From contig OZ245768.1 of the NCBI GenBank assembly GCA_965227835.1, positions 120,001 through 152,000 on the forward strand: a DNA stretch of 32,000 nucleotides. Direction: 5' to 3'. A program made the translations under genes and the position numbers. The notes under the pieces were generated by a model. That model searched no databases, was not told the DNA's origin, and saw nothing but the letters and a program-made list of their open reading frames with translations. This DNA comes from Candidatus Saccharimonadota bacterium. Its GTDB lineage: Bacteria > Patescibacteriota > Gracilibacteria > BD1-5 > UBA6164. The number at the start of each line of letters is the position of its first letter. The stretch's first letter is position 1. This document shows, one piece after another, positions 1 to 26,836 of this stretch.

Positions 1-1
1 G

Positions 2-547
2 ATATCACCTTTGGTTGAAGAATCAGAAAAGATAGATTTAGCTAATGCAATAAATACACATAGTTATTTAGAAAATATCTTTTTCCCTTACAAGGTCTGA
101 CTTCTACATGGTAAAATGAAACCCAAGGAAAAAGAGGAAATTATGCTTAGTTTCAAGAAAAATTATATTAATGTTTTATCTTCCACATCTGTTGTAGAAG
201 TCTGAGTTGATATAGCTAATGCTTCTGTTATTTGTATAGAGTGAGCTGAAAGGTTTGGTCTTAGTCAGCTTCATCAATTTAGATGAAGAGTAGGTAGAGG
301 AGATTATAAATCTTATTGTTATTTATTTCCTAGTTCTTGAAATTATACAGATAGGCTGAAAGCTATGGAAAAAACTAATAATGGTTTTGAATTATCAGAA
401 ATAGATTTAGAAATAAGATGACCTTGAGAAGTTTATTGAGTGAGACAATCATGACTGCCAGATTTAAAAATTGCAAAACTTACAGATTTGGAGTTAATTT
501 CAGAGATTAGGGAAGATATAGAAGATTTGATGTTAAACGGAGAGTAA
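2..547 (+). CDS. recG: ATP-dependent DNA helicase RecG, C-terminal fragment (5' end outside window)
   Basis: Frame 2 with TGA=Gly reads ...[79 protein letters not shown]. These match RecG helicase motifs V/VI and the C-terminal TRG-like segment. TAA stop at 545-547. Confidence 0.9.
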
Positions 548-659
548 AATATTTAAGTTAATTTTTATATATAGATAATTAATGAACTCAAAAAATATAG
601 ACTTTTTTACCTAGCTCAATATATTATCAAATATAAAATTACAGTATAATAATGAATAT

Positions 660-1379
660 ATGATAAAAAAAATCGTTGAAAATCCTTTTTTTGAGAAATT
701 TATTATAACTATAATCTTAATAAATTGAATAACTATTTGACTTGAAACATCAAAAACAATTATGCAAAATTATTGAGTTTTTTTGCATTTATTTGATAAT
801 ATAGTAATAGCTATATTTACTCTAGAAGCCATTTTAAAAATATATACATATAGATTTAATTATTTCAAAAGTTGATGGAACTTGTTTGATTTTTCAATTG
901 TTGTTATTTCACTGATACCTACTAGCTGACCTTTCCAAATACTTAGAATATTTAGAGTATTTAGGATTTTAAGACTTATAACAGTTATTCCTTCTATAAG
1001 AAAAATAGTCTCTGCTCTTTTGAGTGTAATCCCATGAATATTATCCGTTTTGGTTTTGATATTAATAATATTTTATGTTTTTGCTATAATGGCTACTCAA
1101 TTGTATTGAGAGAATTTTCCAGAATGGTTTGGTAGTATTTGAAGTTCATTTTTTACTTTGTTTCAAATAATGACCTTAGAATCTTGGTCAATGTGAATAG
1201 TCCGTCCTATTCTAGAAATTCATCCCTATGCTTGGGTATTTTTTGTTATTTTTATATTAATATCAACTTTTGTGATGATAAATTTAGTTATAGCTATAGT
1301 TGTGGAAGCAATGAATAAAATTAGTGATACTCAAGAAGAACATTACAAAAAAGCAAAAATGCCTCAAAATCTGATTTAA
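660..1379 (+). CDS. Voltage-gated sodium channel, NaChBac/BacNav family (single 6-TM domain)
   Basis: ATG 660, TAA 1377-1379, checked codon by codon. S4 voltage sensor has Arg every third residue ([22 protein letters not shown]). Pore is [19 protein letters not shown], the TLESWS selectivity filter. The C-terminal coiled coil appears to lie in another frame (see findings). Confidence 0.85.
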
Positions 1380-1448
1380 AAAAATTAGAAAAAAATGTAA
1401 AAGAATTAAGGGATTTATTAAATAAAATAGATAATAACTAACTTATTT

Positions 1449-2480
1449 ATGAGTTTACTTCAATTTTTCTTTATAATATCAGGTATTATTATATTAATAC
1501 TTTCTTTTGATATTTCAAAAAAACAAAAATTCAATGCACTACATTTTATTATTTTTCTGTGAGTAGGTTCTGGGCTTTTGATATTTAGTTTTTTCCCAAA
1601 TGTGTTATCTAAAGTTTGAAGTATTTTTTGAGTAGCTAGATGAGCAGATGTTTTGGTTTATACTTCTATTGTTTTTCTTCTTTATTTTGTTCTTCTTCTT
1701 TTAGCTAAACATGTAGATAATAAAAATTCTATAACACAGCTTGTAAGAGAAATAGCTATAGATTCAAGTTTAAAAAAGAAAATAAACTGAAAATTAGTCT
1801 TTATTATAAGAACATACAATGAAGCAGAAACCTTATGAAAAGTAATAAAAGATATAATATCTAGTTGATATAAAAATATATTGGTTGTTGATGATTGAAG
1901 TTTTGATAGCACTAGTAAAATTTTAGAGAAAAATTCAAAAAATATTGTTGTTGTTAGACATTTAAAAAATAGATGAGCTTGAGCTGCTTTGGAAACTGGA
2001 TTTGAGTATTTAAGGAGATTTTGAGATGTAAAATATATTGTTATTTTTGATGCAGATTGACAACATTCTATAAAAAACCTCCCTAGGTTTATAAATTTAA
2101 TGGAAAAAGACAAAAATATTTGAGCTGTTTTTTGATCAAGATTTATAGAAAAAACCAAATCAAATGTTCCTTTTCCTAGGAAAATAGCTTTATTTTTAGG
2201 TAGAATATTTACTCTTGTTATCAGTAATGTTTATCTTACAGATGCACATAATTGATATAGAGTTTTTAGAATGGATGTTATAAAGAAAATAAAACTTACT
2301 ATTGATTCAATGGCTTATGCTTCAGAGCTTATAGAAGAAATAAGAATAAAAAAAATAAAGTTTAGTGAAGTTCCTGTGGATATATTATATACTCCTTATA
2401 GTATAAAGAAATGACAAAAAGGTGCTTGAAATGCCATAGATATAGCTCTTAGATTTATTTGGAACAAGTTTTTTAAATAA
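1449..2480 (+). CDS. Fusion of a DUF2304-like small membrane domain and a family-2 glycosyltransferase (DPM1/GtrB-like)
   Basis: 343 codons, verified free of TAA/TAG. N-terminus has 3-4 TM helices with the GVARGADVLVY motif. It is followed by GT2 motifs VVDDGSFDST, IFDADGQH and LTDAHNGYRVF. Confidence 0.8.
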
Positions 2481-2556
2481 TTTTTTATAAAAATTAATGT
2501 CATATTAATATTAGATTATTAAAAAGTATATTATTTTTTAATAATTCTTAATAAGA

Positions 2557-5500
2557 ATGAAAAAATTATTTCTTTTTTCACTTCTTTTTATTTTCTTTAA
2601 TTTTTACACGGTTTTTTGAAATTCGTGATCTATAAATGATTCTAAAACTTATAACATTGAAGATATAAATGATGAAAAAATAGAGGATATAGATTCTTGA
2701 AATTTGAATACAGAAGAAAACATCCCAAAAGATTTAGAAAATGAAGATAATTTAATAGATTCTTGAAACTTAAATGAGCAAGATATTGAAGAATCAGATG
2801 AATCAATAGAAACCTCAAATTCTGAAAAGTTGGATGAAGATAATATTGAATCTTCAAGTGAATCTCAAGATTTAGAAAATTGAGATTTGGAAGAAGTCTC
2901 AAATAATTTTGATTGAAACTACGAAGATGGTGAGTCTTCAACAAATTCTTGAAGTTTAGATGATTGAGATTTAGAAGAAAATTTAAACGATACTGACTGA
3001 AACGATGAAAATGAAGAAATTCCAACAAATTCTTGAAGTTTAGAAAATTGAAATGAGAAAATAGAAGATAATCAAAATGACGACGAAATTTCAGACAATA
3101 CAGAAATAAACTCATCAAATTTAGATATCCCAGATATAGTTATAGAAGTCCAAAGCTGACTTGATTATGTTTGAGAATGAGAATACAAGTGTAAGAAAGA
3201 AGAGTGCAAAATAAATCTAAGTTTAGAAGAAATATTTACCTGATCATATGATAAAAATAATTATGAATGTGTTTGGGATTTTTGAGGTTGAATATTTTCA
3301 ACTATTTGAACAGACTTAAAATGTAACCCATGATATGTTAGCTATGGTACTTGAATATTTGATCTTTGAGTTAGAGTTTTAGAAAAAAATAACAGCGAAA
3401 ATTATAAAGAAAAACCTTTTAGAATAATAAATTATATTGAAGAAGAAACAAATTGAGATTTAAGTGATGAAAATGATAGTGGGGATTCAACAAATACTTG
3501 AAGTTTAGAAAATGATGAAGAAGTAGAAGATAATAAAGATGACAACGAAATTTCAGATAATACAGAAATAAACTCATCAAATTTAGAAATTCCAGATATA
3601 TTTATAGAAGTTCAAAGCTGACTTGATTATATATGAGAATGAGAATACAAGTGCAAAAAAGAAGAATGTAAGATAAATTTAAGTTTAGAAGAAATATTTA
3701 CTTGATCATATGATAAAAATAATTATGAATGTGTTTGGGATTTTTGAGGTTGAATATTTTCAACTATTTGAACAGACTTAAAATGCAACCCATGATATGT
3801 TAGCTATGGCACTTGAATATTTGATCTTTCAGTAAAAGTTTTAGAAAAATATAATACCCAAAATTACAAGGAAGAGCTATTTAGAATAATAAACAGCACT
3901 GAAACTGAACAAACAAATTGAGATTTGAGTGATGAAAATGATATTGAGGATTCAACAAGTTCTTGAATTTTAGATGATTGAGATTTAGAAGAAAATTCAA
4001 ATGATACTAATTGAGATGATGTAGATGAAGAAATTCCAACTAATTCTTGAAATTTGGAAAATGAAGAAGAAATAGAAGATAATCAGGATTATGATGAAGA
4101 TTCAAATAATACAGAAACAAGCTCATCAAATTTAGAAATTCCAGATATAGTTATAGAAATTCAAAGCTGACTTGATTATATATGAGAATGAGAATATAAA
4201 TGTAAGAAAGAAGAATGTAATATAAATTTAAGTTTAGAAGAAATATTTACCTGATCATATGATAGAAATAATTATGAATGTGTATGGGATTTTTGAGATT
4301 GAATATTTTCAACTATTTGAACAGATTTAAAATGTAACCCATGATATGTTAGTTATGGCACTTGAATATTTGATCTTTCAGTAAGAGTTTTAGAAAAAAA
4401 CAATAACCAAAATTACAAGGAAGAGTTATTTAGAATAATAAACGATATTGAAACTGAAGAAACAAATTGAGATTTAGAAGAAAATGATATTGAAGATTCA
4501 ACTAATTCTCAAAATCAAGATACTTGAAGTTCAGATGAAAACCAAATAGAAGCTCCCTCTATTTTTTGGAGCTTTCAAAGGCCTAGTTATATATTTGATT
4601 CTGATAAAATTCTTTCAAAATACATTTGTGATAAATCCAAAGATGAATGTAAAATCAACCTAGATTTAAGAGATAGCTTTGTATGAGATTTCAAAGAAAA
4701 AGATTTTTTTTGTGAAATTGATTTTGGGCTTTGAAATTCGACATGACAAGAAGATAAATGTAATCCAAATACTGTTATTTTTCCTATTTGAGATTTTTAT
4801 ATTAACTTCAAAATAATCTCAAAACTAGATAATTCTGTGTATTCCAACCTATGATTTTACCTTGAAAATAAAGAAAAAATTATAAATTCTATAAATGATT
4901 CAAGTACATCTACAAACTCTTCTGATTTCAAAGCAAAACAAACTATTTCCCTAAAAGAAATAATTATTCAAAGCTGACTAAAAAAGGACTGAAATCAAAA
5001 CTACTTTTGTAACAAAGAAATATGTAGTATAAACCTAATTTATTTAAATGAAAATCCAGACTTACTATGTAGCTGGGATTTTTGAGAAGGTTTCTTTAAA
5101 ACAAAAAATACTGATAAAAAATGTAATCCTTGATATGTGAAATATTCTTCTTGAAAACATAAAATTAAGCTGACCATATATGATAAAAATTACCTAGATA
5201 ACTATAAAGAAACTTTTTTAAGTTTTGATAATTTGGGTTCTGACCTATTTGTGTCTGAAGAAAATGATTTATCTCAAGAAATAGAAGAGGACATAGTTTT
5301 TGATTTTGATAATTTGGCAAATTTAAAACTTTGAAATATATCTGTAAATCCTAGAGGTAGTGATAAACTTGAATATATAGAGATTATAAATAATTGAGAT
5401 AATCTTATAAATTTGAGATGATGTTATATTGATGATATTCTAGATTGATGAAGCAAGAGATATATTTTTAAAAAAGACTATTTTATATTCCCCAAATCTT

Positions 5501-7086
5501 CCAAAAAATTATATAAAAAAGATACTAAACTAAATCTAAACAATAATTGAGATGAGGTAAATTTTTTCTGTTGAGAGAAACTTATAGACAAAGTTAAATG
5601 GAATTTTACTGTCAAAAGCTGATTTTTGCTAAATCACAAAAATACTGAAATAAAAAGTTCTTTTGTGGAAGTGGTGAATGTAGTGGATTGAGATACTTTT
5701 GTAATAAAATTTGATAGTTGAAATACTGAGAAAATTAGGCTTATATGAATTGATACACCAGAAACCAAAGATCCTAGAAAACCTGTTCAATTTTTTGGAT
5801 ATAAGGCTTCAAATTATAGTAAAGAAAACCTTTTATGAAAAAGAGTATATCTAGAAATTGACCCAGAAAATTATAGAGATAAATATTCCAGACTTCTTTG
5901 ATATATACACCTAAATTGAGAGAGCTTTAATATGAATTTAGTTAAAAATTGATATGCTAGAGTTTATGATAAGTTTGATTTTAAATATTTGAATTTTTAT
6001 AGAAAAGCTCTTGAATATGCCAAAAATAACAAGCTTTGAATGTGGGCTTTTTTAAATTCTGATATGGAAAATAAGCTTTTTTTAAAATATCAAAAAGAGA
6101 TAAAACAAGACCAAGATTTTATACAATTGGAGGATAGTTTAGACATAGATATAGAGGAAATAAAAGAAGTTCAAATTCAAAATAAATCTTATAACGATCT
6201 TATAACAAATATTGATCAAATTTATCTAAATCAAAAAAGTCTTTTGTCTCACAATGTATCTTGAATTCCCTCTGATTTTTTAGTCTATGAAAAAATAGAT
6301 CCTCTTCTTACAAATATTAATCAATTGCCAAAAGAAAAGCAAAAAATTATATGAGATTACAGCTTTTTATTAAACGAACAAAAGTCTATGGATAGTTATA
6401 AATATTTCATAAATAATTCTTTCAGTATTGGTATTTCTAAACTTAAATCAGGTTTAAAAATTTATTGAAAAACCTCTAAAAATTCTAAAGTTTATTTTAA
6501 CCTTTGAAATGAGATTCATATTTTGAATTCTGATTCAAATTGAGATTTTGTAACAAAAATAACAAACCCTGATAAAATTATATCATGAGATTTTGAGATA
6601 AAAACAAAAATAATAGATGAGTTTTGAAATATTTTTGATATAGAGGATTCAAAAACATTTAATATTCAAGAAAATTACATATCAGAACTAAAGCTTAAAA
6701 TTATTGAGGATGAAAAGAAGGATTATTTGCAGACTTTTACATATCTTGATAAAAATATATTGAGTTTAGAGAAAGATTTTGATAAAAATATCAAAAAACT
6801 CTTGAAAAGTGATGCTAAAAATTCTAATAATCTAAGTTATATGAAAAAATCTTCTTATAAAGATGATTTATTAAATTTATGAGAAAAGCTTTCTAAGGTT
6901 CAAATTTATTATAAGGATGTTTGATATTTAAATTCTAGTAATCAAAATAAAGTTATTTATTATTTTTATATAATGATTTTTAGTTTTACTTTGTTTTTTA
7001 TCCTTATTAAAAGATATTTATCTCAAAACTCCCCAGTTTTTTTAATAAAAAAGTCTAAAAAAAGCTTGACAGAGGGGATAATCTAA
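2557..7086 (+). CDS. Giant (1509 aa) secreted, C-terminally anchored surface nuclease: signal peptide, acidic linkers, five PKD-like Cys-rich modules, lamin-tail-like domain, staphylococcal nuclease (SNase) domain, TM anchor
   Basis: Every line checked in frame 1: no TAA/TAG from ATG 2557 to TAA 7084-7086. Signal peptide MKKLFLFSLLFIFFNFYTVFG. PKD-like WDFG(G/D)G..KCNPGYVSYGTG modules. LTD-like NISVNPRGSDKLEYIEIINNGDNLINLRGCYIDD (about 5330-5620). SNase domain VVDGDTFVIKF..IRLIGIDTPETKDP..FFGYKAS..RVYLE..DKYSRLLGYIH..NLVKNGYARVY..AKNNKLGMW (about 5656-6050). TM anchor VIYYFYIMIFSFTLFFILI (about 6952-7010). The last 22 codons are IS-derived. Confidence 0.85.
3118..4560 (+). repeat. Three near-identical in-frame tandem repeats (unit starts 3118, 3580, 4129; periods 462 and 549 bp), each a PKD-like Cys module plus acidic linker
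   Basis: Long stretches are nearly identical, e.g. ccagatata(g/t)ttatagaa(g/a)t(c/t)caaagctgacttgattat..gaatgtgt(t/a)tgggatttttgag. Two degenerate copies follow (about 4560-4860 and 4960-5230). Linker 2935-3117 resembles linker 3955-4128. Confidence 0.85.
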
Positions 7087-8306
7087 TAATTGAAGTAATA
7101 TATTATTATTACTTTTTTTTATGCAAGAAATACAAAAAATAATAAACAAAGAACTATGATATTTAATGAAATATGAATGCAAAAATGATAAAAGATTTAT
7201 TAAAGAGTTTTTTTGAGATATAATAAAGCTAAGAACAACAATAATGAACAAATTATGATTTTGAAAATATAAAAATCCTAACAAAATGAGTGAAAAAATA
7301 AAACATTTCTTTGAAAAAGATAGTTTTAAAAATTTTAACCTAAAAGTAGAAAAAAGATGTTTTTCTATGTTATGAAAAATAAATAAAAATGATTATATAG
7401 TTTTTGATGAAGTTGATATAGCAAAACAATACTCAAAGAAGCTAGAAAATTTATCTAAAGTAAGAGATTGAAGTACTTGAAATATAGTTTCTTGATATAT
7501 GTATCATTGAGTAAGTATAAATTGAATTCCTGTAATACTTGAGTATGAAGATTTAACTAATAAATTTAAATCTGAATATTTTTGAAAATTAATTAAAAAA
7601 GTAGAAGATTATACTAAATGAAAGTGAATATATGTATATGATGCTTGATATGATATAGCATCATATATAGAGTTTTTAAATAATAGTGTAAATAGATGGA
7701 TAATAAGAGCTAAAAAGAATAGGATATATTTTGATTTAAAAACCAATAAATATTTGAAATTAAAGGAATTTAAAGATTGAGTTCATAAGGTAAGAATTAA
7801 TTCAGTTAATGAATCAATATATCTTCATATTAAATCAAATCCTAAATTTCCTGAACCAATGAGGATATTATCAAATTCAAGAAAAACAGATATAGAAGAA
7901 TATAAACAAAGACGGGAAATAGAGACAATATTTAAAACTATGAAGCAGGAGTTTCAGCTTGAGAAACTTCAAGCTAAGAGTTTAATAGTATTTAAAAATT
8001 TTGTTTCTACTATACAGTTGGCTATGGCTTTGACTAGGACTATATATAAAAAGAATAATTCTTTTTGTGAGAATCAGAGGTTTATACTTTCTTCTAGATT
8101 TAAATCTAGATTTAGAGATTATACAAAATCTCGATGAATAACTATGAATTCTAATTCTATTGTTAAATTTATATCTTATTGTTTAACAAAGTTGTATAAA
8201 CCTCCTAAAAAACATATTAAAAATTTAAATAATAAAAACAACCTACATTTCCCTCAGTTATCCTTATTCTCATATGTCGATTTTATAAAAAGTGGGTAGT
8301 TTTGAG
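7022..8306 (+). mobile_element. IS4-family insertion sequence (1285 bp) with terminal inverted repeats and a 6-bp target duplication
   Basis: IRL ctcaaaactcccca (7022-7035) versus the reverse complement of 8293-8306, ctcaaaactaccca (13/14). Direct repeat atttat at 7016-7021 and 8307-8312. A single DDE transposase ORF lies inside. Confidence 0.8.
7121..8299 (+). CDS. DDE transposase, IS4 family
   Basis: 392 aa, frame checked. DDE residues in IVFDEVD, YVYDAGYD (the Gly is TGA) and YKQRREIETIFKTMK, the Y(2)R(3)E(6)K signature of the IS4 family. Confidence 0.85.
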
Positions 8307-8427
8307 ATTTATATGTTTAAGTTTTTTATATTTTATTAATAAAATACTGAAATAAACTTTCTATTTTACTAAAAAGGGAGCTAAATTTTTTTGTTGAAAG
8401 AGTATGATTTATCAAAATTAAAAGTTA

Positions 8428-10590
8428 TTAAGATTTTTCAATTGAAAGCATATATAATCTAATTCATTCAAAGTCCTCCATTTCAAATAGTCTCCTGATT
8501 TCTTTTTTCTCTTTTCTATAAATTAAATCAAAATCAAAAGTTCAGTCTTTTCAATATTTAAGCAGATTATATATAAACATGTTAATGTTATGGAGTTTTG
8601 GATTAATCATCTCTTCAAAAATAAGTCATTTATTTAAATAAGAACGACCATAATTAGGATTAATTTCTAAAGCTTTATCAAGAATTTTAATAGCTTGATC
8701 AAAATCTCATTTTTTAAATAAAGCATTTCATTTGTTATTATATGCTTCTTCATAACTAGGATTAAGTTGAATTGCTATATCATACATTTTAATAGCTCAA
8801 TCAAAATCTCATTTACTAGATAAGGCACTTCATTTGTTATAATATGCTTCTTCATAATTAGGATCAAGTTGAATTACTATATCATACATTTTAATAGCTC
8901 AATCAAAATCTCATTTACTAGATAAGGCACTTCATTTGTTATAATATGCTTCTTCATAATTAGGATCAAGTTGAATTACTCTATTATACATTTTAATAGC
9001 TCAATTAAAATCTCATTTTTCAAATAAGGCATTTCATTTTTTAAAATAAGCATCGGTAAATTTAAAGTTAATTTGAGTTGCTAAATTATACATCTCTATA
9101 GCTTTATCAAAATCTCATTTTTTAAGTAAAGTATTTCAATTACTACAATAAGCATGTTCAAATTTAGGGTTAATCTCAATTGCTCTATTAAACATTTTAA
9201 TAGCTCAATCAAAATCTCATTTTTTGAGTAAAGTGTTTCACTTGTTATTATATATCATTTCATAATTAGGATTAAATTGAATTGCTGAATTACAAATTTT
9301 AATAGCTCAGTCAAAGTCTCATTTACTAGATAAATCACATCACTTGTTATTAAGAATTTGGGACAATAATATTTTTTCTGGATCTCAAGATAAGGCTATT
9401 TTATAATTCATAAAATAATTAGATTTTTCATTTATAGAAATACCAAAGTTTTTATAAATTCATTTTTTACCGTCAAATTCTACATTTCTTCACCATTTCA
9501 ATTTATATATTTCTACACAAGAAGTAGGGTCAAAATAATAGCCATCATCTCATATAAAAATCTCTAAAGCTGAATGTTCAGGAATAGCTAATCAATTATG
9601 TTTTATTCATAGTTCAGATAAAAAACAGTGTCCTACCAATGAGAATCATACACAATACAGTTCTTTATACCTAAGTATTTTATTGGGTTGGTATCAATAA
9701 TCATCTGATGTTAATTGATATGGATATTTAGTATGAAGTATTCATATCATTTGATTTGTAGCTTTTTTTTCTAACTTTACTATTAATTCTTTATCATTAG
9801 CTTTTCTTGCTTCTTCTAGTTTCTTCTTAAAATCATCTATTCAAATTTTTTCTCTAAGTTTTTGTTCTTCAATATCCAAAAATTCTGGCAAAATTTTTGA
9901 TGTAATAATCTTTTCTCCTTCTTTCCTAGGTCTAGATTTTATTTCTTCAAATTCTTTTCTAGTAAGAGTCATAAGACCATATCTAAGCATATCCATTGAT
10001 TTTCTAAAGAAACTTAAATCAAACTCCGTAGTATAAAGAGACTCTATTAAATCATCTAAATCATCTATATCTTTTAACCTCTTAGTATTCTCTTTTTTAT
10101 CTACCTCATTTTTTTGATTTTTATAACCTTTTATTTCTCTAATAGATTTTCTAAGAGAGAATATACTAGAATCTATTTCTTGCTGATATTTAGAAAAAGA
10201 ATCTACAGGCAAAGAATTTTCTAAAATTATCATTTCTATCTTTTCTTCATTTTCTTTTTTAAGATTTAAAATTTCTTCATTAGAAATACCTTTAGTTCAC
10301 AATCTCACATATCATATAAATTTTTTTATATCTAATCACAGACTAAATTTTTCATTTAAAAGAAAAACTACTTGAAATAAATCTTTATTGTTTAAGTCTA
10401 CAGGTAAATAAAGATCATAAAATTTTCAAAACTTATCTTCTCAGTTTTCTAAAAGAAACCTTCATTTCATAGAATCAAATTCTTTTCTATCTACAAACAC
10501 AGGATTTATATGATCTAGAGTTTCTAAGATTTCTTTAAAAGCTTCTCTTGAATTACTATTCTCAAATAATTTACTGTTTAAATTTATCAT
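8428..10590 (-). CDS. SirB1/transglutaminase-like (Transglut_core2-type) + TPR-repeat protein, paralog A (720 aa), with an uncharacterised ~290-aa N-terminal region
   Basis: Minus-strand frame checked line by line (no tta/cta in frame). Core is LYCVGFSLVGHCFLSELGIKHNGLAIPEHSALEIFIGDDGYYFDPT. About 7.5 TPRs of 34 aa follow (..AIKMY..AIQLDPNYEEAYYNKG..). The tail is FEGIRLYMLSIEKS*. Confidence 0.75.
8779..8982 (-). repeat. Two tandem 102-bp (one TPR = 34 codons) units, 101/102 identical
   Basis: 8779-8880 and 8881-8982 differ only at the penultimate base (at versus ct). Flanking 102-bp units are progressively more diverged. Confidence 0.9.
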
Positions 10591-10705: not shown

Positions 10706-12853
10706 TTAAGAATTTTCAATTGAAAGCAAATATAATCTAATTCATTCAAAGTTTTTTTCTTTAATAAGTTTTATAATTTCTTCTTTCTCTTTTTTATAAA
10801 ATAAATTAAAATCAAAAGTTGTATTTTTTGGAGATTCAAGAAAATTGCATATTGATATGTTGATAAAAAATAAATTAAAATTTATGAATAGACCTTCTCA
10901 TTTTTTTTCAAGGAGGTTATACAAAAATAGATTGATGTTAGATTCTTTTGATTTACCTAATTTTTTTAAAGCTTGTCATTTTTCAAAATAAGCTCTTGAA
11001 TTCATAGAATTAGTCTCTATAATTTTATTATAAATCTTTATAGCTCAACTATAATCTCATTTATCAAATAATAATCTTCACTCATTGAAATAAGATTCTG
11101 CTTCAATTCATAATACATACAACCTAATTCATTCAAAATCTTGTTTTTCAAATAGTTTTATTATTTCTTTGGCTTCTTTTTCAAAAAGTATTAAATAATG
11201 ATCTGAAACTCACTCTTTTCAATTCTCAAATAAATCATGTACGAATTTGTTTATATCAGACTCTCTGTATTTTTTTAGAGCTCTTAATGTTACTGACTTG
11301 CAAAAATAAGCACCTTCAATCTTAGGATTGATTTCTATTGCTTTATTGTAATTTTTTATTTCCTTATTATAACTATTTTTATGATATAAATTAATTCATT
11401 TTCTAATATAAAAATATTCATTTTTAGGGTTAAGTTCTATAGCTTTATCTAAGTTTTTTGTTGCTTCATCATGGTTTCACTGTTCCTCTAGATAAATTCA
11501 TTTAAAATAATAATAAAGATCTGAATTTCCAAGGTCAATTTCTATTAATCTATCAAATATTTTCATCGCTTTGTCAAAATATCATTTTCTCTTTAAAGAA
11601 ATTCATCTATTATAAATTACATGTCATAATAATATTTTTTCTGGGTCTCAAGATGTTGCTATTTCATTATCTATAAAATAATTTTTATCCCCATTTATAG
11701 AAATACTAAAATTTTTATAAATTCATTTTTTTCCATCAAATTCTAAATTTTTTCACCATTTTAATTTATGTATTTTTCTACTATATGTAGCATCAAAATA
11801 ATAGCTATCATTTCATATAAAAACCTCTAAAGCTGAATGTTTAGGAATATTTAATCAATTATGTTTTATTCATAATTCAGATAAAAAACAGTGTCATACT
11901 AACGAAAATCATACACAATATAATTCTTTATACCTAAGTATTTTATTGGGTTGATATCAATAGTGATCTGATGAGACTTGATATGGATATTTAGTATTAA
12001 GTATTCATATTATTTCATTTGTAGCCTTTTTCTCTAACTTTATTACTAATTCCTTATCATTAGCTTTTCTTGCTTCTTCTAGTTTCTTCTTAAAATCATC
12101 TATTCAAATTTTTTCTCTGAGTTTTTTTTCATTGATATCCAGAAATTCTGGCAAAATTTCTGATGTACTAATTCTTTCTCCTTCTTTCTTAGGTCTAGAT
12201 TTTATTTCTTCGAGTTCCTTTCTAGTAATAGTCATAAGACCATATCTAAGCATATCCATTGATTTTCTAAAAAAACTTAAATCAAACTCCGTGGTATAAA
12301 GAGATTCTATTAAATCATCTAAATCATCTACATCTTTTAATTTTTTATTTTTCTCTTTTTTATCTACCACATTTTTTTGATTTTTATAACCTTTTATTTC
12401 TCTAATAGATTTTCTAAGAGAAAATATACTAGAATCTATTTCTCCTTGATATTTAGAAAAAGAATCTACAGGCAAAGAGTTTTCAAAAATTATCCTTTCT
12501 ATTTTTTCTTCATTTTCTTTTTTAAGATTTGAGATTTCTTCACTAGAAAGATCTTTAGTTCACAATCTCACATATCATATAAATTTTTTTATATCTAATC
12601 ACAGACTAAATTTTTCATTTAAAAGAAAAACTACTTGAAATAGATCTTTATTATTTAAATCTACAGGCAAATAAAGATCATAAAACTTTCAAAACTTATC
12701 TTCTCAGTTTTCCAAAAGAAACCTTCATTTCATAGAATCAAATTTTTTTCTATCTACAAATACAGGATTTATATGATCTAGAGTTTCTAAGATTTCTTTA
12801 AAAGCCTCTCTTGAATTACTATCCTCAAATAATTTATTGTTTAGATTTAGCAT
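10706..12853 (-). CDS. SirB1/transglutaminase-like + TPR-repeat protein, paralog B (715 aa), with a chimeric C-terminus
   Basis: Frame checked line by line. The N-terminal ~400 aa are very similar to paralog A. The TPR region is strongly diverged. The FEGIRLY(V/L)L tail motif occurs twice (internal, about 11100-11190, and terminal). Confidence 0.75.
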
Positions 12854-17461: not shown

Positions 17462-17981
17462 AGATTTTTTCAATATAGTTTTTATTAATTTAAAATATAT
17501 TCTCTTTAATTTAAAATTCAAATAAGTAAATATTGACTTTATTATCTGTACCAGTAGATAGGTACCACTATTTATTGATATGGAATTGTGTAAAAAAGAG
17601 GATGAGGATATAATAGATTTTGTAAAAAATTTTATTTTATAATCCCAAACCTCTTATGAAATGATTATATGAAAAAATGTGTACTAAGCAAGGAGTAGAA
17701 TCAGCAAGAATCCTCGCGAGGTCGATACTTGAAGAAAACAAAGGAAACGTAAGTAAAACAGCTTATATATTATGATGTTCTCGTAAAACAGTAAGAAGAA
17801 GTAGAGATGGTCCTATAGAAAATATATCAAGAGCTCCTAAGACTCCTCATAATAAAAAAACATCTTCTGATTTAGAATGACTTGTATTACAAGAACGAAA
17901 TAAAACAAAATATTGAAGAGTACGTCTAGCAAAGTATTTATTCCTCAGATATGGAATAACATTCTCTTCCTCTACTATATG

Positions 17982-19184
17982 GATCTGTTGCGTTTTGATT
18001 TTAAAAAGAGTTTTAATTAAGAAATGTACTAAAATAGATGAAAGATTTATAAAATTCATCTATTTTTTGTTAAATTATAGCCATTTTTATATATAATTTA
18101 GGATTTTAGACGCAATCCACCTAAGGAAACTAATCTAAACTATTGGGACTTCCTCTAAAACAACTAATCTTTTGAGATTAAAAGATATAGCTTCCATAAA
18201 TGCAGTAAACTGATTTTTTACTACAGACTTATACCTCACTCTATGATTCATTTTTGAAAATACCCTCTCATAAGGAGATCTAAGTTTAGAATAAAACTTA
18301 TCTTTATCCTTGTTCTTATCTTTCATATTATTTTTCTTTATTGCACATAGATGTAATCACTTCTTTTTTGTTGATATTACAGCCGGTCAAATACAATATC
18401 ACTTATCAGCATATACTGCTCATGAACTTGGTAATACATGCTTCATTCACTTTGCATCTGTTACATTAGCTTGAGTTATAGCTATCTTGTTTATCATTCA
18501 AGATTGCATATCAACACTAGTATGTTTTTTATATCCATACCAAAATTTATTTTTTCATTTAGATCAAATTTTAGCTTCCTTATCATTAGCAACTTTTGGA
18601 AGAGTTTCATTATTCATTTTTTCATATCATTCTTTTATTCATTTATCTCTTTCTTCCCATAAATTAGCTTTAGTAACTAAATGAGAAGCATCTACAAATG
18701 TAAACACTTCACTCATATACCCCTTATTTGATAATTGATTTTTTAAATCTTCAAATATCTTTGATAGTTCATTTGTTCATATCTTTTTTCTTGCTCTTGA
18801 GAATATACTATAATCTGGAGTTTTATCTGTTAATTTAAATCAGCAAAACCATTTACCAGCTAGATTTTCTGCAAGATATTTCTCTAACTCTCTATCTGAT
18901 AAATCTTCCATAAACTGGATTAGTAAACATAGAAATAATTTTTTTACTCAATATCATACATGAGTTTTTCATAGATCTATATTTTTTAGTATTTTATTTA
19001 CTCAATCAAAGTTCCACAATTTCTTAAATTTACGATATTGATGATTTTCTGGAATTAGCTCGTTTAGGATAACAAAACTTATTTGATTTGATTCTCACAT
19101 AGGTATTTTCTTAGAATATAATTACTATCTAATTATATCTCTTTTTTCTCTTTTTAATAGTCAAAGTTTAATTTACAACAGGCT
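17982..19184 (-). mobile_element. IS5-family insertion sequence (about 1.2 kb) nested inside the IS481 transposase gene
   Basis: Flanked by the direct repeat ctatatg (17975-17981 and 19185-19191). Weak terminal IR (..ctgttg at both ends). Contains an intact transposase ORF. Confidence 0.7.
18135..19100 (-). CDS. IS5-family DDE transposase (DUF772-type N-terminus + DDE_Tnp_1)
   Basis: 321 aa, frame checked codon by codon. Motifs FTFVDASH, AVYADKGY (the Gly is TGA), SKLRSPYERVFSKMNHRVRYKSVVKN. Confidence 0.85.
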
Positions 19185-19935
19185 CTATATGAAATATACT
19201 AAAAAGAAACAAAGTAAAAAAGCATCATTATTCTCGTAGAAAATGAGATAGTAAACCTCTATACGATTATCAAAATATTCTTCCCTTTGAGTATGGTCAA
19301 GTAGATACAAAGCATATAGAAGATTTTGAAGCTTTATGAGAACTTTGTTTTATACTAAGAAAATATAATCTTCCTTTATATCAATGGACATATATATGTG
19401 CTAAAACAAAATATAAATTTATAGCTTATTCTCATAGTCTTTCTTCTGAATTTGGTCTTATGTTTATACTTACTATAGCTACATATCTTAGGAGTATGTG
19501 AATATATTATCATATGGAATTTCAATGAGATAATGGCCCTGCTGATTTTTGTGGATGAAGTAAGAGAAAGGAAAATCAGTGGAATGCTATATTAAATAAT
19601 ATAAATTGCTGTTTTAAGAGTATTCCTGCTTGAAAAAAATATCTTCAATGAATTGTAGAGAGATCTCATAGAACTGATGATGAAGAATTATATAGACCTT
19701 ATCTTGATCGCATGAAATCTCTTCCTAATTTTTTAAACCATAGTAGTAAATATATTTATACTTATAATAATTATAGACCTTCTTTTTGAATAGGTATGAA
19801 CGGTTTAAGTCCTATTGAAAAACTTAGAAGTTGTAATATAATTCTTCCTACAAAATTTAATAATTTCCCTGTCCTTATCCTAGATAATCTTGCTAAAATT
19901 GGTGGTACCTATCTAAAGGACCATTACCGTAAATA

Positions 19936-19963
19936 TTGACTTTCTTTTTAATATTTATATTAT
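19936..19963 (+). promoter_or_regulatory. Candidate promoter TTGACT-N16-TATTAT for the downstream membrane-protein gene
   Basis: ttgact at 19936-19941 (inside the right copy of the 15-bp direct repeat), tattat at 19958-19963. Confidence 0.4.
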
Positions 19964-21750: not shown

Positions 21751-22009
21751 GATAAATAACAATTAAATAAAAAACTCCTTGATTAAACAAGAGAGTTTTT
21801 TTAAAAAGAGAAACTCCCTACAATAGCAAAGCAAAAATCTTTTTTTATGAATATATAAGATCAAATAACTAAATATCTCTGCCTAAAAAAACAAAAAACA
21901 ACAAGGCTAAAGTCTTCTGTTGAAGAAGATATAATATCAAAGGAATAAAGCTCTCTATCTACTAAAAATAAATTTATATATTTAAGAATTAATTCTTCAA
22001 TCTCTCATT

Positions 22010-22041
22010 AAAAAACCATTTCCAATTGGAAATGGTTTTTT
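22010..22041. terminator. Bidirectional intrinsic terminator (perfect palindrome)
   Basis: aaaaaa-ccatttccaattggaaatgg-tttttt. Lies immediately downstream of the minus-strand ATPase gene and at the end of the non-coding island. Confidence 0.7.
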
Positions 22042-22044
22042 AAG

Positions 22045-23241
22045 TTATATGATTTTTAGCAATTCATCAAAACTAACTATTTTTATATTTTTTGAATTTC
22101 AAATCTTACTTCAAAATTCACTTTTATTATCTAAAACTATATATTTGTAAAAGCTAGATTTTACATTTAAGTCTTTATTTTCTTCTTTAGTAATAATTTC
22201 AGGAACTTTTATTAATCTATTTATAGATTTTTTAATATTTCATATATCTTTACTTTTACAAATATCTATAAATATTGTTACACTTTCTAAATCATTATTT
22301 CATTTTTTTACTGTTTTATTTCCATAAAACAAAAATTCATAAACACCATTTATTCAAGAATTTATTTTATATCAACTTTTTTCCAACTCATTAAATAAAA
22401 AGTTTTCTTTAATTAAGCTTAAATCTAAACTGAAATTATATAAACTATTTCTAAAGTCACTACTTGAAAAATAATACTTTACTCTAGTATTTATTTCTTT
22501 TTTCTTTTTAAAATCAAAAACATAAACTGGTTTTAATATCTTTGCATTTATAGAATATTTTAAATAATCTATCATTGTAATAAGAGATACTTTTATGCTA
22601 TTATTTATTTCTTTATTTAATTCTCTTAAAGAAACATTTCTGTTTAAATTACTTAAATATGTCAAAGTATAAATATACAAATATATATTTTTTACATTAT
22701 ATATTTTTATTATTTCTTCAAAAATAGTATTTTTAGTTTTTAAATCTTCTAGATATTTATTTTTGTTATTATAAACTATATCAAATTCTCTTTTTTTATC
22801 GCTAAATATTTCAAATTCTTTTTTGTTTCATATCTTTATACTATTTGATATTATTATAGTTATATAAGAATTATTATATAAATATTTTATATATTCTTTT
22901 ATGTTTTTTACTCAATCTAGGTTCTCCAAAATTATCATTTTAGGATTATTATATTTACTTTTATATAACTCTAATATATCTTTTAAGCTATTTTTATCTT
23001 CTAAAATATTATTTAAATCTAAGGATTTATTCAAATACAAAAAATAATCTTTCAAATTACTATTTGATATTATATAGCTTATAACAGATGTTTTTCACAC
23101 ACCTTTAATTCAAGATATAACTATAATTTTTTCTTTTTTGATATATCAAACTATATCATTTATTGTATTTTTTGAGACATCTTCTCTGTATCATTTTGAA
23201 TCCAGAAAATATTTTTTACTTCTTTCTATTAGATTTATCAT
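22045..23241 (-). CDS. AAA-superfamily ATPase (AAA_14 + DUF4143-like architecture)
   Basis: 398 aa, frame verified. Walker A ISGIKGVGKTS, Walker B-like MIILENLD. The C-terminal half resembles DUF4143-type proteins. Family assignment is from motif and architecture only. Confidence 0.6.
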
Positions 23242-23447
23242 ATTTTTGTTATTTTATAATTATACATTTTCTAAATTATTATAATAATTATTTACATTTA
23301 ATCAAATTATATTTAAAAGTATTTTTGAAATAAAGTGTTAATTTAGGATTTTGTTTTTTGTATTTTTTAAAAAATTAATAGTATATATAAAATTACAAAA
23401 TTAAAAATTTTTGACATATAAAAACTTAACTTATTAAAAATTTATTG

Positions 23448-25274
23448 ATGGATAAAATTGAAAAATCTTTGATAAACTTAATCAAACATATTTTAGAAAA
23501 AAACTACAGTCTAAATATAGAAAATCTAAAGCTTTTAAAACCACCAAAAGAGTTCTCATGAGACTTCTCATTTAATACCTGATTTCTTTCTAGTTATTTA
23601 AAAAAAGATCCAAAATTAATTTGTACAGAATTAAAAAATTTTATAGATTCTTTGAAGCAAGATAATTTAGAAAAAGAATATGAAGCCTATTTTAATTTAA
23701 TTGATGAAACTGAAGTATCTTGAATTTATCTTAATATAAAAATTGTTGAAAACTTATTCTTGGAAGAGTTTTTGAAACCTTCAAACTTTTTTAGTGAAAC
23801 AAGACTAAAAAATTCTTCTAAAAATATAGTTATAGATTATATATGAGCTAATGTATGAAAACCTCTTCATATTTGACATATATGTACACCAAATCAAGGT
23901 GAAACTATGGCAAATATATATAAATATTTATGATATAATGTTATAACAGATTCTCATATTTGAGATTGGGGAATTATTTTTTGAAAATTAATTTTTGGTT
24001 ATAAAAAATGGTGAGATGAAAATAAATTAAAACAAAATGCTGTTGATTATCTTTTGGAACTTTATGTGAAATCTACCGCTGAAGCTGAAAAAGATATTTT
24101 AATTGAAGAAAGATTTAGAGAAGAATTTAGACTATTATCTCAAGGTAATAAAGACTCCATAAAACTTTGGAATCTTTTTACCAAGGAGTCTATAGAATCA
24201 ATGAATACTCAACTTTTTAGATTAAATGTAAAACCAAACTTTAACATTTGAGAGAGTTTTTATGAATGATTAAACTTACCAAAAATGGAAAACTATCCTG
24301 ATTTAGAATACAATATGAAAGAAATTGTTTTAGAACTTATAGAAAAATGAATTGCTAAAAAAAATCAAGATAATTCCGTTTGAATTGAATTTCCTGAAAA
24401 TACAAAAATACCTAGCTGTATACTCCAAAAAAGAGATTGAACACATTGATATCTAGCTTCTGATTTAGCTTGTATAAAATATAGAATGGCTAACTGGCAA
24501 CCAGAACATATAATTTATTTCGTAGACTCTAGGCAAAAACTTCACTTAAGCCAAGCCTTTGAAATATCAAAAATGGCTTGATGGCTTGAATATCAAGATA
24601 ACTCAAAACAAAATCTAAGCACAAATCTTTTTCATGCATATAATTGATTTATAAGTTTGAAAGATTGAGCTATGTCTACTAGAAAATGAAAAATTATAAA
24701 ACTTTCCAAACTTTTGGATGAAGCAGAAGACAGAGCAAAAAAAATTATACTTGAAAAAAGAAGTGATATATCTTGAAGTGAACTTGAAAAAATATCTAAG
24801 ATTATAGCATCAGGAGCTATCAAATATTGATACCTAAAAAAATCTAGAGAAACAGATGTTGTATTTGATTGGGATGATTTTATGAATTTTGAATGAAATT
24901 CTTGACCATACATACAATATGCTTATGTAAGATCAAAAAGAATTTTTGAAAAAGAACCAAAAATACTAAAAAATTTTGATATATCCAACTTAAAGATAGC
25001 AAAAGAATCTTTATCTTTGATAAAAATTCTTCTTAAATACAATTCAAGCTCATCTCCAATTTTGGAAACTATAATTAAAAATATGCCACATATTTTAGCT
25101 TCTTATTCATATGAACTCACAAAATCTTTCAACAATTTTTATAACAATGTGGAAATACTAAATGAAAAAAATAGTAATCTTAGAAATTTATATCTTCTAA
25201 TAAACAAGAGTTTTCTTGAAACAATAGAAAAATGTTTTGAACTTTTAGGTATTTCTATGCCAGAAAAAATGTAG
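23448..25274 (+). CDS. argS: Arginine--tRNA ligase
   Basis: 608 aa, frame verified. Motifs ANVGKPLHIGH (HIGH, with Gly = TGA at 23874-23876), SHIGDWG, AMSTRKG, and the C-terminal DALR-type anticodon-binding region. Confidence 0.95.
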
Positions 25275-25957: not shown

Positions 25958-25978
25958 AGTTTAACTCTATCTTTTTTT
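25945..25978. terminator. Bidirectional terminator between convergent genes
   Basis: agatagagt (25952-25960), loop tta, actctatct (25964-25972), flanked by an A-run and a T-run. Confidence 0.65.
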
Positions 25979-26753
25979 ACTCAAAATCAGATACAGGGTA
26001 GGGAATTCATTGGTTTTCACTGCTAGAATTTGAAGTTATGATTTGTTCATCTCAATCTTCCAGTATGGATCATGATGCAGATCATATTAGAGTTTCTGGA
26101 CAATCATCTGGTTCTCAATAACAAGACTGTTTATCATACGATCAAGATATCTTAGTCATATACTTATCACTTCAATCTTTTTTTATTGTGTATGCTATGT
26201 TATAATCATTTCACCTACTTGTTCAGTCTGTTTTTATATTTTTTTTGTAAATGGCATAAATATATCTACCTATTCAATAATCTATCATTTTCTCGTTACT
26301 TCCTGTAAGATTTATATCTCAAAGTTCTGGATCATACAAATCTTTAGTAAGATATTTTTTTCATAGAGTATTTTGTGATATAGTTCATTTATATCATATA
26401 TCCAAACTTGATCAGCTCGCAACTATTAGTCATCATCAACTACCACTTTCTATTCTTTCTATTTCTTGATCATCATACTTTACATTAAGTGTATTTGATC
26501 TATTTGCTGTTGAACCTGTATATCACCACAAATTATTATCTGAATATAAATCTGTAGGAGGATAATAATTTTTATCAGCTTTATATTGCTGTAGAGCTGT
26601 TTCTATTGTAGAAACATCACTTATCTTTCTTCATGACATAGCCTTATCTACTGCTCATCCAAAATTTTGATAAGCAACTACTGATATTATAGCTAAAATA
26701 GTTATTACTACCAAAAGCTCAACTAGTGTAAAAGCATTATTTTTTTTCTTCAT
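25977..26753 (-). CDS. Type IV pilin / pseudopilin with N-terminal prepilin methylation motif
   Basis: 258 aa, frame verified. MKKKNNAFTLVELLVVITILAIISVVAY class III signal with the conserved Glu at +5. The variable C-terminal globular part is Gly-rich. Confidence 0.8.
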
Positions 26754-26836
26754 AATTATTTTTATATAAATTTTAAAATTCATTGTTACAATAGTCCTTT
26801 ATAATTAAAAGTAAAGTACATTCAACTAAAATCACT

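Follow-up and report, generated by a model that had tools for sequence, protein, structure and literature searches.

A predicted surface-anchored staphylococcal-type nuclease with a lamin-tail domain and Cys-rich PKD-like modules in a gracilibacterium

Gracilibacteria are tiny, probably host-dependent bacteria, and the locus described here raises the question of what such a cell would do with one very large gene that carries a nuclease domain. The gene lies at 2557-7086 on the plus strand of a 32,000-nucleotide stretch (positions 120,001 to 152,000 of contig OZ245768.1, assembly GCA_965227835.1), which is the whole of the DNA analysed and is called the window below. An earlier note, written by a model from the letters alone, had described the product as a secreted nuclease tethered to the cell on a long stalk and had suggested nucleic-acid scavenging or attack on prey as its purpose. 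The gene proves to be intact and under purifying selection, and it encodes five Cys-rich modules, a lamin-tail domain (LTD) and a staphylococcal nuclease (SNase) domain with all key active-site residues, between a signal-like N-terminus and a C-terminal hydrophobic helix. The account towards which we lean, if only somewhat, is that of a cell-surface, Ca2+-dependent nuclease that feeds nucleotide or DNA acquisition.

How is the reading frame to be translated? The gene as a whole is:

2557..7086, plus strand: open reading frame (ORF) of 1509 codons in code 25 (TGA = Gly); the native gene corresponds to the part up to codon 1488 plus two lost codons.

The frame opens with ATG and closes with TAA at 7084-7086, and it holds 83 in-frame TGA triplets and no internal TAA or TAG. 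At the composition of the gene (42% A, 33% T), the chance of 1509 codons free of TAA and TAG is about 1e-55; in 50 shuffles of the window, the longest such run was 167 codons. TGA supplies 83 of the 98 Gly codons and stands at the invariant Gly of DGDT and RLIGIDTPE in the SNase domain and of WDFGxG in the modules. The code of the gene is table 25 rather than table 4 because TGA occupies these invariant Gly positions, and the same observations bear out the table-25 reading of the earlier note. Table 4, in which TGA is Trp, was rejected because correctly translated NCBI homologues carry Gly at DGDT, GxDTPE and WDFGxG; table 11 was rejected because the longest ORF it yields in the region is 158 aa. 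In-frame TGA also occurs in every other long ORF of the window, which becomes densely coding once TGA is read as sense. Many database copies of the family are mistranslated, with Trp at every TGA, and wrong translation tables thus scatter this nuclease family across the databases. The named relatives of the RuvB protein encoded in the window are exclusively Candidatus Gracilibacteria (71-76% identity), which by sequence makes the source organism a gracilibacterium; the contig with the window's own RuvB is 1.49 Mb long. The note had spoken of a lineage generally inferred to depend on external nucleotides, and this is supported: such dependence is found in the literature for the sister Absconditabacteria (PMC8080830).

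Is the nuclease a real one? The catalytic part of the protein and the domain ahead of it comprise:

5323..5604, plus strand: LTD, aa 923-1016; Pfam PF00932, conserved in the family.
5665..6051, plus strand: SNase/thermonuclease domain, aa ~1037-1165; Pfam, PDB alignment and family conservation.
5692-5694 (D1046), 5737-5739 (R1061), 5752-5757 (D1066/T1067) and 5761-5763 (E1069), plus strand: Ca2+-binding and catalytic residues, from the alignment with the S. aureus nuclease.
5884-5886 (Y1110) and 5890-5892 (R1112), plus strand: further active-site residues, from the same alignment.

The SNase domain matches Pfam PF00565 with 86.7 bits (cutoff 21, E 1.8e-24) over aa 1059-1164, covering model positions 1-106 of 107; the NCBIfam models extend it to aa 1029-1165 (nt ~5641-6051), and structures of the S. 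aureus nuclease in the PDB align with it at E 7e-19. Residue by residue, D21, R35, D40, T41, E43, Y85 and R87 of the S. aureus enzyme correspond to D1046, R1061, D1066, T1067, E1069, Y1110 and R1112, so that the three Ca2+ ligands (D21, D40, T41) and the three catalytic residues (R35, E43, R87) are all kept, and none of the seven positions varies among 12 diverse family members. Of the tyrosines that contact the substrate in the S. aureus enzyme, Y85 is conserved as Y1110; the stretch around Y113/Y115 aligns over a gap (ARVYD.KFD), and the residue correspondence there is uncertain. We predict from these matches that the domain is a catalytically competent enzyme of the SNase family. It falls below the cutoffs of both NCBIfam equivalogs, NucI (NF047694; 117.4 against 250) and EcnA (NF047969; 84.1 against 180). 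Taken by itself, the LTD segment reaches 38.0 bits, above the PF00932 cutoff of 34.3, and within the whole protein it reaches 33.7, just below it; the equivalent positions in relatives bear precomputed PF00932 matches. An SNase at 5656-6050 with an LTD ahead of it is what the earlier note had read from the letters; it had also named the absence of either profile match, or the loss of the catalytic Arg, Glu or Asp, as fatal to that reading, and both domains matched in profile searches while the catalytic residues are retained in the alignment.

Between the signal-like N-terminus and the LTD, the protein consists of modules and acidic linkers:

2620..3123, plus strand: acidic stretch of low complexity, rich in D/E/N/S, aa 22-189, with a net charge of -52 and an 84-nt tandem repeat (2871-3051).
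3124..3426, plus strand: module M1, aa 190-290; 4 Cys; WDFGGG, CNPGYV.
3427-3588 and 3892-4137, plus strand: acidic linkers flanking M2.
3589..3891, plus strand: module M2, aa 345-445; 90% identity with M1; belongs to a 462-nt tandem duplication at 3023-3981.
4138..4440, plus strand: module M3, aa 528-628; 89-92% identity with M1 and M2; followed by an acidic linker at 4441-4548.
4549..4881, plus strand: module M4, aa 665-775; 'FQxPSY...CNPNTV' subtype; 36-40% identical to M1-M3.
4945..5241, plus strand: module M5, aa 797-895; short 'IIIQSGL...WDFGEG' subtype.

Five modules of about 100 aa apiece thus fill aa 190-895, each with exactly 4 Cys at near-constant spacing. M1-M3 are 89-92% identical among themselves; for M4 and M5, identity with the other modules is 32-46%. 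Five Cys-rich WDFGxG modules with acidic linkers had been described in the earlier note and are found as described. Its label 'PKD-like' holds in the sense of remote homology and fails as a family assignment. Searches of M1, M4 and M5 against the Pfam PKD models (PF00801/PF18911) gave no match even at E <= 10, so a direct assignment to the Pfam PKD family was rejected; in P0008, a homologue from Candidatus Gracilibacteria bacterium 28_42_T64 whose translation is correct, the corresponding modules reach 16-19 bits against PKD cutoffs of 23.5 and 27. The significant PKD matches of the relatives come from a canonical PKD domain immediately ahead of the LTD; the window protein has no such domain. 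Profile comparisons carry the relationship further. A hidden Markov model (HMM) of the five window modules alone matches the canonical PKD domains of the relatives with 25-34 bits, and an hhalign comparison of 205 Cys-rich modules with 35 modules of the family that Pfam does recognise as PKD reaches a probability of 98.3% (E 1.9e-14). Against PDB sequences, the module profile finds PKD domains as its sole matches, with ColH (whole chain) at E 7e-6. Structure was modelled on a homologous module as a proxy (P0008 213-318, 48% identical to M1), and the model is all-beta with a predicted local distance difference test (pLDDT) score of 95.4; its best Foldseek matches are the PKD domains of ColH, ColG and PrtV, a weak fold match at E ~1e-2 and template-modelling (TM) scores of 0.5-0.58, with none at E <= 1e-3. 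The verdict from these comparisons is that the modules are probably a divergent, disulfide-reinforced PKD-like type, and they lie outside the Pfam PKD families. Now that this Pfam-invisible module has been defined, it can help to annotate large surface proteins of these lineages.

Where would the nuclease sit? The ends of the protein and the region behind the SNase domain read as follows:

2557..2619, plus strand: signal-peptide-like N-terminus, aa 1-21, with MKK, a hydrophobic core and VFG↓NS; from hydropathy, with the same pattern in homologues.
6052..6411, plus strand: acidic, probably helical spacer, aa 1166-1285; poorly conserved and kept only in the closest relatives; low-confidence helices in the proxy model.
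6412..6681, plus strand: Ig-like beta-sandwich spacer, aa ~1286-1375 (LKSGLKIYGKT...EFGNIF); conserved across the family; proxy model.
6682..6948, plus strand: Lys-rich juxtamembrane segment, aa 1376-1464; from composition, with a Lys-rich helix in the proxy model.
6949..7020, plus strand: C-terminal transmembrane helix, aa ~1465-1484, then KRYL, which starts a short basic cytoplasmic tail; from hydropathy and the proxy model.

Hydropathy finds just two hydrophobic stretches in the protein, aa 3-22 and ~1465-1488, and a transmembrane helix with a short basic tail terminates nearly all of the homologues counted below. Together with the cleavage-like VxG↓N site, these points argue for export and membrane anchoring, and they agree with the signal-like N-terminus and C-terminal helix that the earlier note had proposed. 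The twenty Cys of the predicted ectodomain, in five sets of four, are consistent with an extracytoplasmic location. Three known kinds of anchoring signal were looked for and not found: there is no lipobox (the first Cys is at aa 212), the sole loose LPXTG match is NPRGS at aa 931, within the LTD and with nothing near the C-terminal helix, and the sequence ahead of that helix (...NSSNQNK) has no GG motif of the GlyGly-CTERM kind. In a subfamily of the homologues (P0021, P0028, P0029, P0032, P0035, P0036 and P0050), a (S/T)PLQ(K/Q)L motif that recalls a sorting or processing signal stands directly ahead of the C-terminal transmembrane helix and basic tail; the window protein is without it. Pfam searches of aa 1166-1509 gave no match. 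The Ig-like domain of the proxy model has seven strands at pLDDT 96-98, with a sub-threshold Big_13 match in P0008, and Foldseek returns generic bacterial Ig-like domains for it; a specific function for the C-terminal 345 aa was rejected, only a generic Ig-like sandwich, helices and the transmembrane segment being found there.

The protein would accordingly be a type-I membrane protein, exported by its N-terminal signal and held in the cytoplasmic membrane by the single C-terminal helix and its short basic cytoplasmic tail. Outward from the membrane, the predicted order is Lys-rich segment, Ig-like spacer, helical spacer, SNase, LTD and the five PKD-like modules, with acidic disordered linkers that would separate and cap the disulfide-stabilised modules. 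A cleaved N-terminal signal combined with a C-terminal anchor would leave some 300 residues between the SNase domain and the membrane and put the acidic/PKD-like array of about 900 aa on the far side of that domain. The picture of a nuclease carried outward on a long stalk is therefore inverted: the nuclease would be membrane-proximal and the array outermost.

Is this arrangement peculiar to the window? A full-length search returned at least 57 proteins of 850-1600 aa with the plan modules-LTD-SNase-Ig-transmembrane helix, and those that carry a lineage name belong to Candidatus Gracilibacteria. The number of modules per homologue is 2-8. Some of them have NCBI names, such as 'PKD domain-containing protein' (28_42_T64, P0008) and 'thermonuclease family protein' (P0017, P0018). 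These three share with the window protein the order signal peptide, Cys-rich modules, LTD, SNase, Ig-like domain, Lys-rich segment, transmembrane helix and basic tail at 29-43% identity; they differ in having a canonical Pfam PKD domain ahead of the LTD and fewer or no long acidic linkers, and the juxtamembrane Lys-rich segment is far more basic in homologues. A scan of reference genomes found LTD and SNase together only in metagenome-assembled genomes (MAGs) labelled Gracilibacteria, Peribacteria, Peregrinibacteria or Patescibacteria group and in two lineage-unlabelled MAGs, with a search pattern that accepted only GGN or TGG as the glycine codon in RLIGIDTPE and so missed TGA-coded copies; the same scan, with this blindness to TGA-coded copies, found no close genome. 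Among the 120 nearest SNase proteins no LTD-SNase fusion occurs beyond the lineage, and these proteins are small stand-alone enzymes. In an exhaustive profile search, 889 cluster representatives out of 1.84 billion matched the Cys-rich module at E <= 1e-3. In 136 additional module carriers, the LTD is present in 97 and the SNase domain in just 23; among the carriers that stand out (P0183, P0186, P0192, P0213 and P0243), some architectures open with the LTD and continue with modules or PKD, in some proteins with modules only, and P0243 combines ComEA-type helix-hairpin-helix (HhH) DNA-binding domains with modules and LTD. Modules, LTD and anchor thus appear, as judged from these architectures, to form a lineage-specific scaffold on which SNase is one payload among others.

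Does the gene still work? The question arises at its 3' end, where a mobile element has landed:

7021..8307, plus strand: insertion sequence (IS), 1287 bp; its terminal inverted repeats are imperfect, and its transposase gene, of the DDE_Tnp_1 type, lies at 7121-8299.

The IS is bordered by a target duplication, TTTA, at 7017-7020 and 8308-8311, and it provides the final 21 codons (7021-7083) and the stop of the nuclease ORF. A syntenic, 95%-identical locus without the IS (L001) shows what was there before: its allele ends in ...RRYLYV and stop, and the window reads ...KRYL followed by 21 IS residues, so the native YV and stop were displaced while the transmembrane helix and the KR behind it were kept. 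The nuclease protein is probably still functional despite the insertion. Against the L001 allele, pN/pS (the ratio of nonsynonymous to synonymous change) of the nuclease gene is 0.30; the gene is under purifying selection.

A decaying or non-catalytic gene, turned by the IS or by loss of activity into a pseudogene or a structural surface protein, is highly improbable in our judgement. It could draw on the IS in the last codons, on the L001 allele, which is split by a frameshift, and on the fact that 113 of the 136 carriers of the module and LTD scaffold are without SNase, so that the scaffold can work nuclease-free. Set against this, the ORF is unbroken for 1509 codons, the catalytic residues are intact and invariant, and the selection just described is that of a maintained gene. 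A pseudogene through IS insertion was rejected, since the last two codons alone were replaced. The frameshift lies at ~12960-13120 of L001 (window ~5474), where the gene is called as two ORFs (988 and 454 aa) owing to a 1-nt poly-A insertion in the LTD; on a contig covered 4.8x, it is most likely a sequencing error.

The same comparison has an uneven profile along the gene. Window and L001 are near-identical over 5236-6424 and 6528-6988, against a divergence of ~5% in the module array and in the genes on either side. In the 1.19 kb that encode LTD, SNase and helical spacer there are 2 differences, one of them an indel of 1 nt, and no synonymous site has changed, for which the chance is ~1e-21; the tract reflects either recent recombination or a chimeric low-coverage assembly. 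No part of the gene varies more between these strains than the array, which is 90-96% identical where the catalytic core is 100% identical, and this could be read as the mark of an adhesin-nuclease directed at a host or prey, chiefly a factor of interaction or attack, in which the array binds the surface or matrix of the host or prey cell and the nuclease degrades host nucleic acids set free by lysis or extracellular DNA of the host's biofilm. Module numbers of 2-8 among homologues, as is often the case for interaction surfaces, would fit, and giant PKD-containing surface proteins have been proposed as host-recognition factors in the predatory Vampirococcus (PMC8080830). The array, however, has a pN/pS of 0.27, which indicates no net positive selection; a membrane-proximal nuclease would be poorly placed against another cell; the binding specificity of the modules cannot be inferred; and the window holds no sign of a predatory or episymbiotic lifestyle. 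We consider such an adhesin unlikely, and the prey-attack role suggested earlier finds no specific evidence here.

We return to the surface nuclease that would serve acquisition. SNase-family enzymes are known to release 3'-phosphorylated products from DNA and RNA. The window enzyme would thus be a Ca2+-dependent, sugar-non-specific endo- and exonuclease that turns both substrates into 3'-phosphorylated mono- and oligonucleotides, and since it would be retained on the cell, nucleic acids would be degraded at the surface. The cleavage products or DNA ends could then be taken up by systems of the same cell and would supply nucleotides and phosphate to an organism thought unable to make nucleotides. 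The LTD probably aids substrate handling, by analogy with the Shewanella endonuclease ExeM, and the PKD-like array beyond it most likely serves for binding, for spacing or to span the envelope. Sister Absconditabacteria are without nucleotide synthesis and have been proposed to live off host DNA by way of pili, ComEA and ComEC (PMC8080830). Bacteria of the candidate phyla radiation (CPR), Gracilibacteria among them, are considered to lack nucleotide synthesis; accounts of how they obtain nucleotides turn mainly on pili and ComEC, and a tethered SNase would add a concrete, assayable candidate for extracellular cleavage. The literature consulted on CPR and Gracilibacteria nucleases yielded nothing specific and no account of an SNase-LTD-module family, and the Vampirococcus genome paper never uses the word 'nuclease' (PMC8080830).

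Would the products be nucleotides, or one strand of DNA? In the strongest rival account, ranked above the adhesin, the enzyme is a competence-type nuclease, with pneumococcal EndA and B. subtilis NucA as models: an SNase close to the membrane would act on captured DNA, nicking or degrading a single strand while the other enters through ComEC, and the protein would belong to the DNA-import machinery instead of being a bulk digestive enzyme. The C-terminal anchor, with the membrane-proximal catalytic domain it implies, suits this account, and so do the ComEA-like HhH domains of the scaffold relative P0243 (for the account we favour, too, a link between the scaffold and DNA) and the surroundings of P0017, which has PilC and pilin genes no more than 8 kb away. 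CPR relatives have been proposed to import host DNA via type IV pili, ComEA and ComEC (PMC8080830), and control of DNA uptake was also considered by ExeM's authors (PMC6085458). The neighbourhoods speak against it, com and pil genes being not consistently adjacent and none being found in the neighbourhoods of the window gene, L001, L082 and L083; ComEC was not seen in the window. Moreover, EndA is a His-Me finger nuclease, unlike SNase in fold and chemistry. We hold the competence account to be possible but doubtful.

The pilin gene to which the earlier note had pointed does not alter this. A type IV pilin-like gene lies at 25977-26783 on the minus strand (N_methyl motif at aa 12-38; likely start at the second Met, 26753), 19 kb from the nuclease gene; pilus-assembly genes were not seen nearby in the window, and no com or pil partner is conserved beside family members; the two genes are not linked. 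The closest clade retains the order RecG - GT2/DUF2304 - nuclease. P0008 sits downstream of ribonucleotide-reductase genes and P0017 near the pilus genes mentioned above, and neither setting is shared across loci. In the first case (L082; 28_42_T64, CP042461.1), 1-3974 encode NrdD, its activase, NrdR and a small subunit, belonging to anaerobic and class I ribonucleotide reductases, 4-8 kb upstream of P0008. The gene neighbourhoods do not discriminate among the functional readings.

Several points weigh against the acquisition nuclease that we favour. The scores lie far under the NucI and EcnA equivalog cutoffs, so substrate and cofactor details are not transferable from those enzymes. For the whole family, activity and localisation are predictions from sequence. 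The Lys-rich segment just outside the membrane contradicts a simple positive-inside expectation, and the IS insertion has altered the cytoplasmic tail. In the window, L001, L082, L083 and L084, none of the genes that one might expect as partners (nucleotidase, transporter, ComEC/ComEA, pilus) lies consistently beside the nuclease gene, and a 32-kb window is too small to judge the organism's nucleotide auxotrophy.

A more far-reaching account, which we put forward as speculative and think improbable, would make the window protein the nuclease-bearing member of a modular surface system confined to Gracilibacteria, Peregrinibacteria and related CPR. One scaffold would carry swapped heads (SNase here, ComEA-like HhH domains in P0243, mostly no enzyme) and would serve auxotrophic episymbionts as an extracellular front end that captures and cuts DNA and passes it to pili and ComEC. 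If this were true, the near-identical catalytic half of the two strains would represent exchange of a functional cassette by recombination.

Other features of the window stand apart from the nuclease gene. Two adjacent paralogues of ~720 aa (8428-10590 and 10706-12853, both minus strand) have near-identical N-terminal ~400 aa and TPR-repeat C-terminal halves of unequal length; the pair is also present in L001. A second patch of mobile remnants occupies 17656-19951, with an HTH_8 gene at 17656-18096 (plus), a DUF772/DDE_Tnp_1 IS5-like transposase gene at 18135-19100 (minus) and an rve_3 integrase-core fragment at 19460-19951 (plus). An AAA_14/STAND-like ATPase gene at 22045-23241 (minus), with a GC content of 17-19%, overlaps the lowest-GC bins of the window (22001-24000), and this low-GC region may be a foreign or defence-related island.

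How does the protein compare with systems already described? The earlier note did not recognise the domain combination as that of a characterised protein. It is indeed experimentally uncharacterised, and the family is unstudied at the bench; the combination itself is less novel than that, given the similar proteins counted above, some of them named by NCBI, and the logic of ExeM/Xds (PMC6085458). ExeM and Xds (Shewanella, Vibrio; PMC6085458) have the same order of parts (signal peptide, LTD, nuclease, linker, C-terminal transmembrane helix and basic tail), the full order in ExeM being SP-LTD-nuclease-linker-TM-RRRR. ExeM is membrane-associated, needs Ca2+ plus Mg2+/Mn2+ and becomes inactive once its LTD is removed (PMC6085458); in cell association, action on extracellular DNA, Ca2+ dependence and a contribution of the LTD to activity, the window protein is predicted to resemble it. 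The catalytic domain differs, ExeM having an EEP (exo-endo-phosphatase) fold and OB folds whereas the window protein has SNase and no EEP match, and ExeM belongs to a Gram-negative host, bears a GlyGly-CTERM/rhombosortase signal and, unlike the window protein, has no PKD-like array or acidic linkers.

The catalytic domain itself is homologous to S. aureus nuclease A (1EY0, 1STN), NucI and EcnA, with the seven key residues in common. Those enzymes are small, secreted or N-terminally anchored single-domain proteins, and here the SNase is embedded in a C-terminally anchored protein of 1490 aa. The PKD domains of ColG/ColH and Vibrio PrtV (4JGU, 4U6T, 2Y72, 4L9D) resemble the modules in the size of the beta-sandwich and in a WDFGDG-type motif; the similarity is weak, and the window modules bear two extra Cys pairs and a CNP motif. 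Beside ExeM/Xds, the closest characterised analogues are the surface SNases of mycoplasmas, where membrane SNases occur in nucleotide auxotrophs (PMC3585158, PMC9740415). M. agalactiae MAG_5040-type enzymes are surface SNases of genome-reduced, UGA-recoded, auxotrophic hosts and are thought to supply nucleotide precursors (PMC3585158, PMC9740415). They are small lipoproteins held by an N-terminal lipidated Cys, with no LTD or PKD-like array, whereas the window protein has no lipobox; MAG_5040 is reported to be Mg2+-dependent, and UGA means Trp in mycoplasma and Gly in the window organism. The building blocks are therefore known already (an LTD, a nuclease and a C-terminal anchor in one logic, and surface SNases in auxotrophs), and the family is partly named in databases. 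What is particular here is an SNase on an LTD scaffold, joined to Pfam-invisible Cys-rich modules and very acidic linkers and confined to the Gracilibacteria/Peregrinibacteria part of the CPR.

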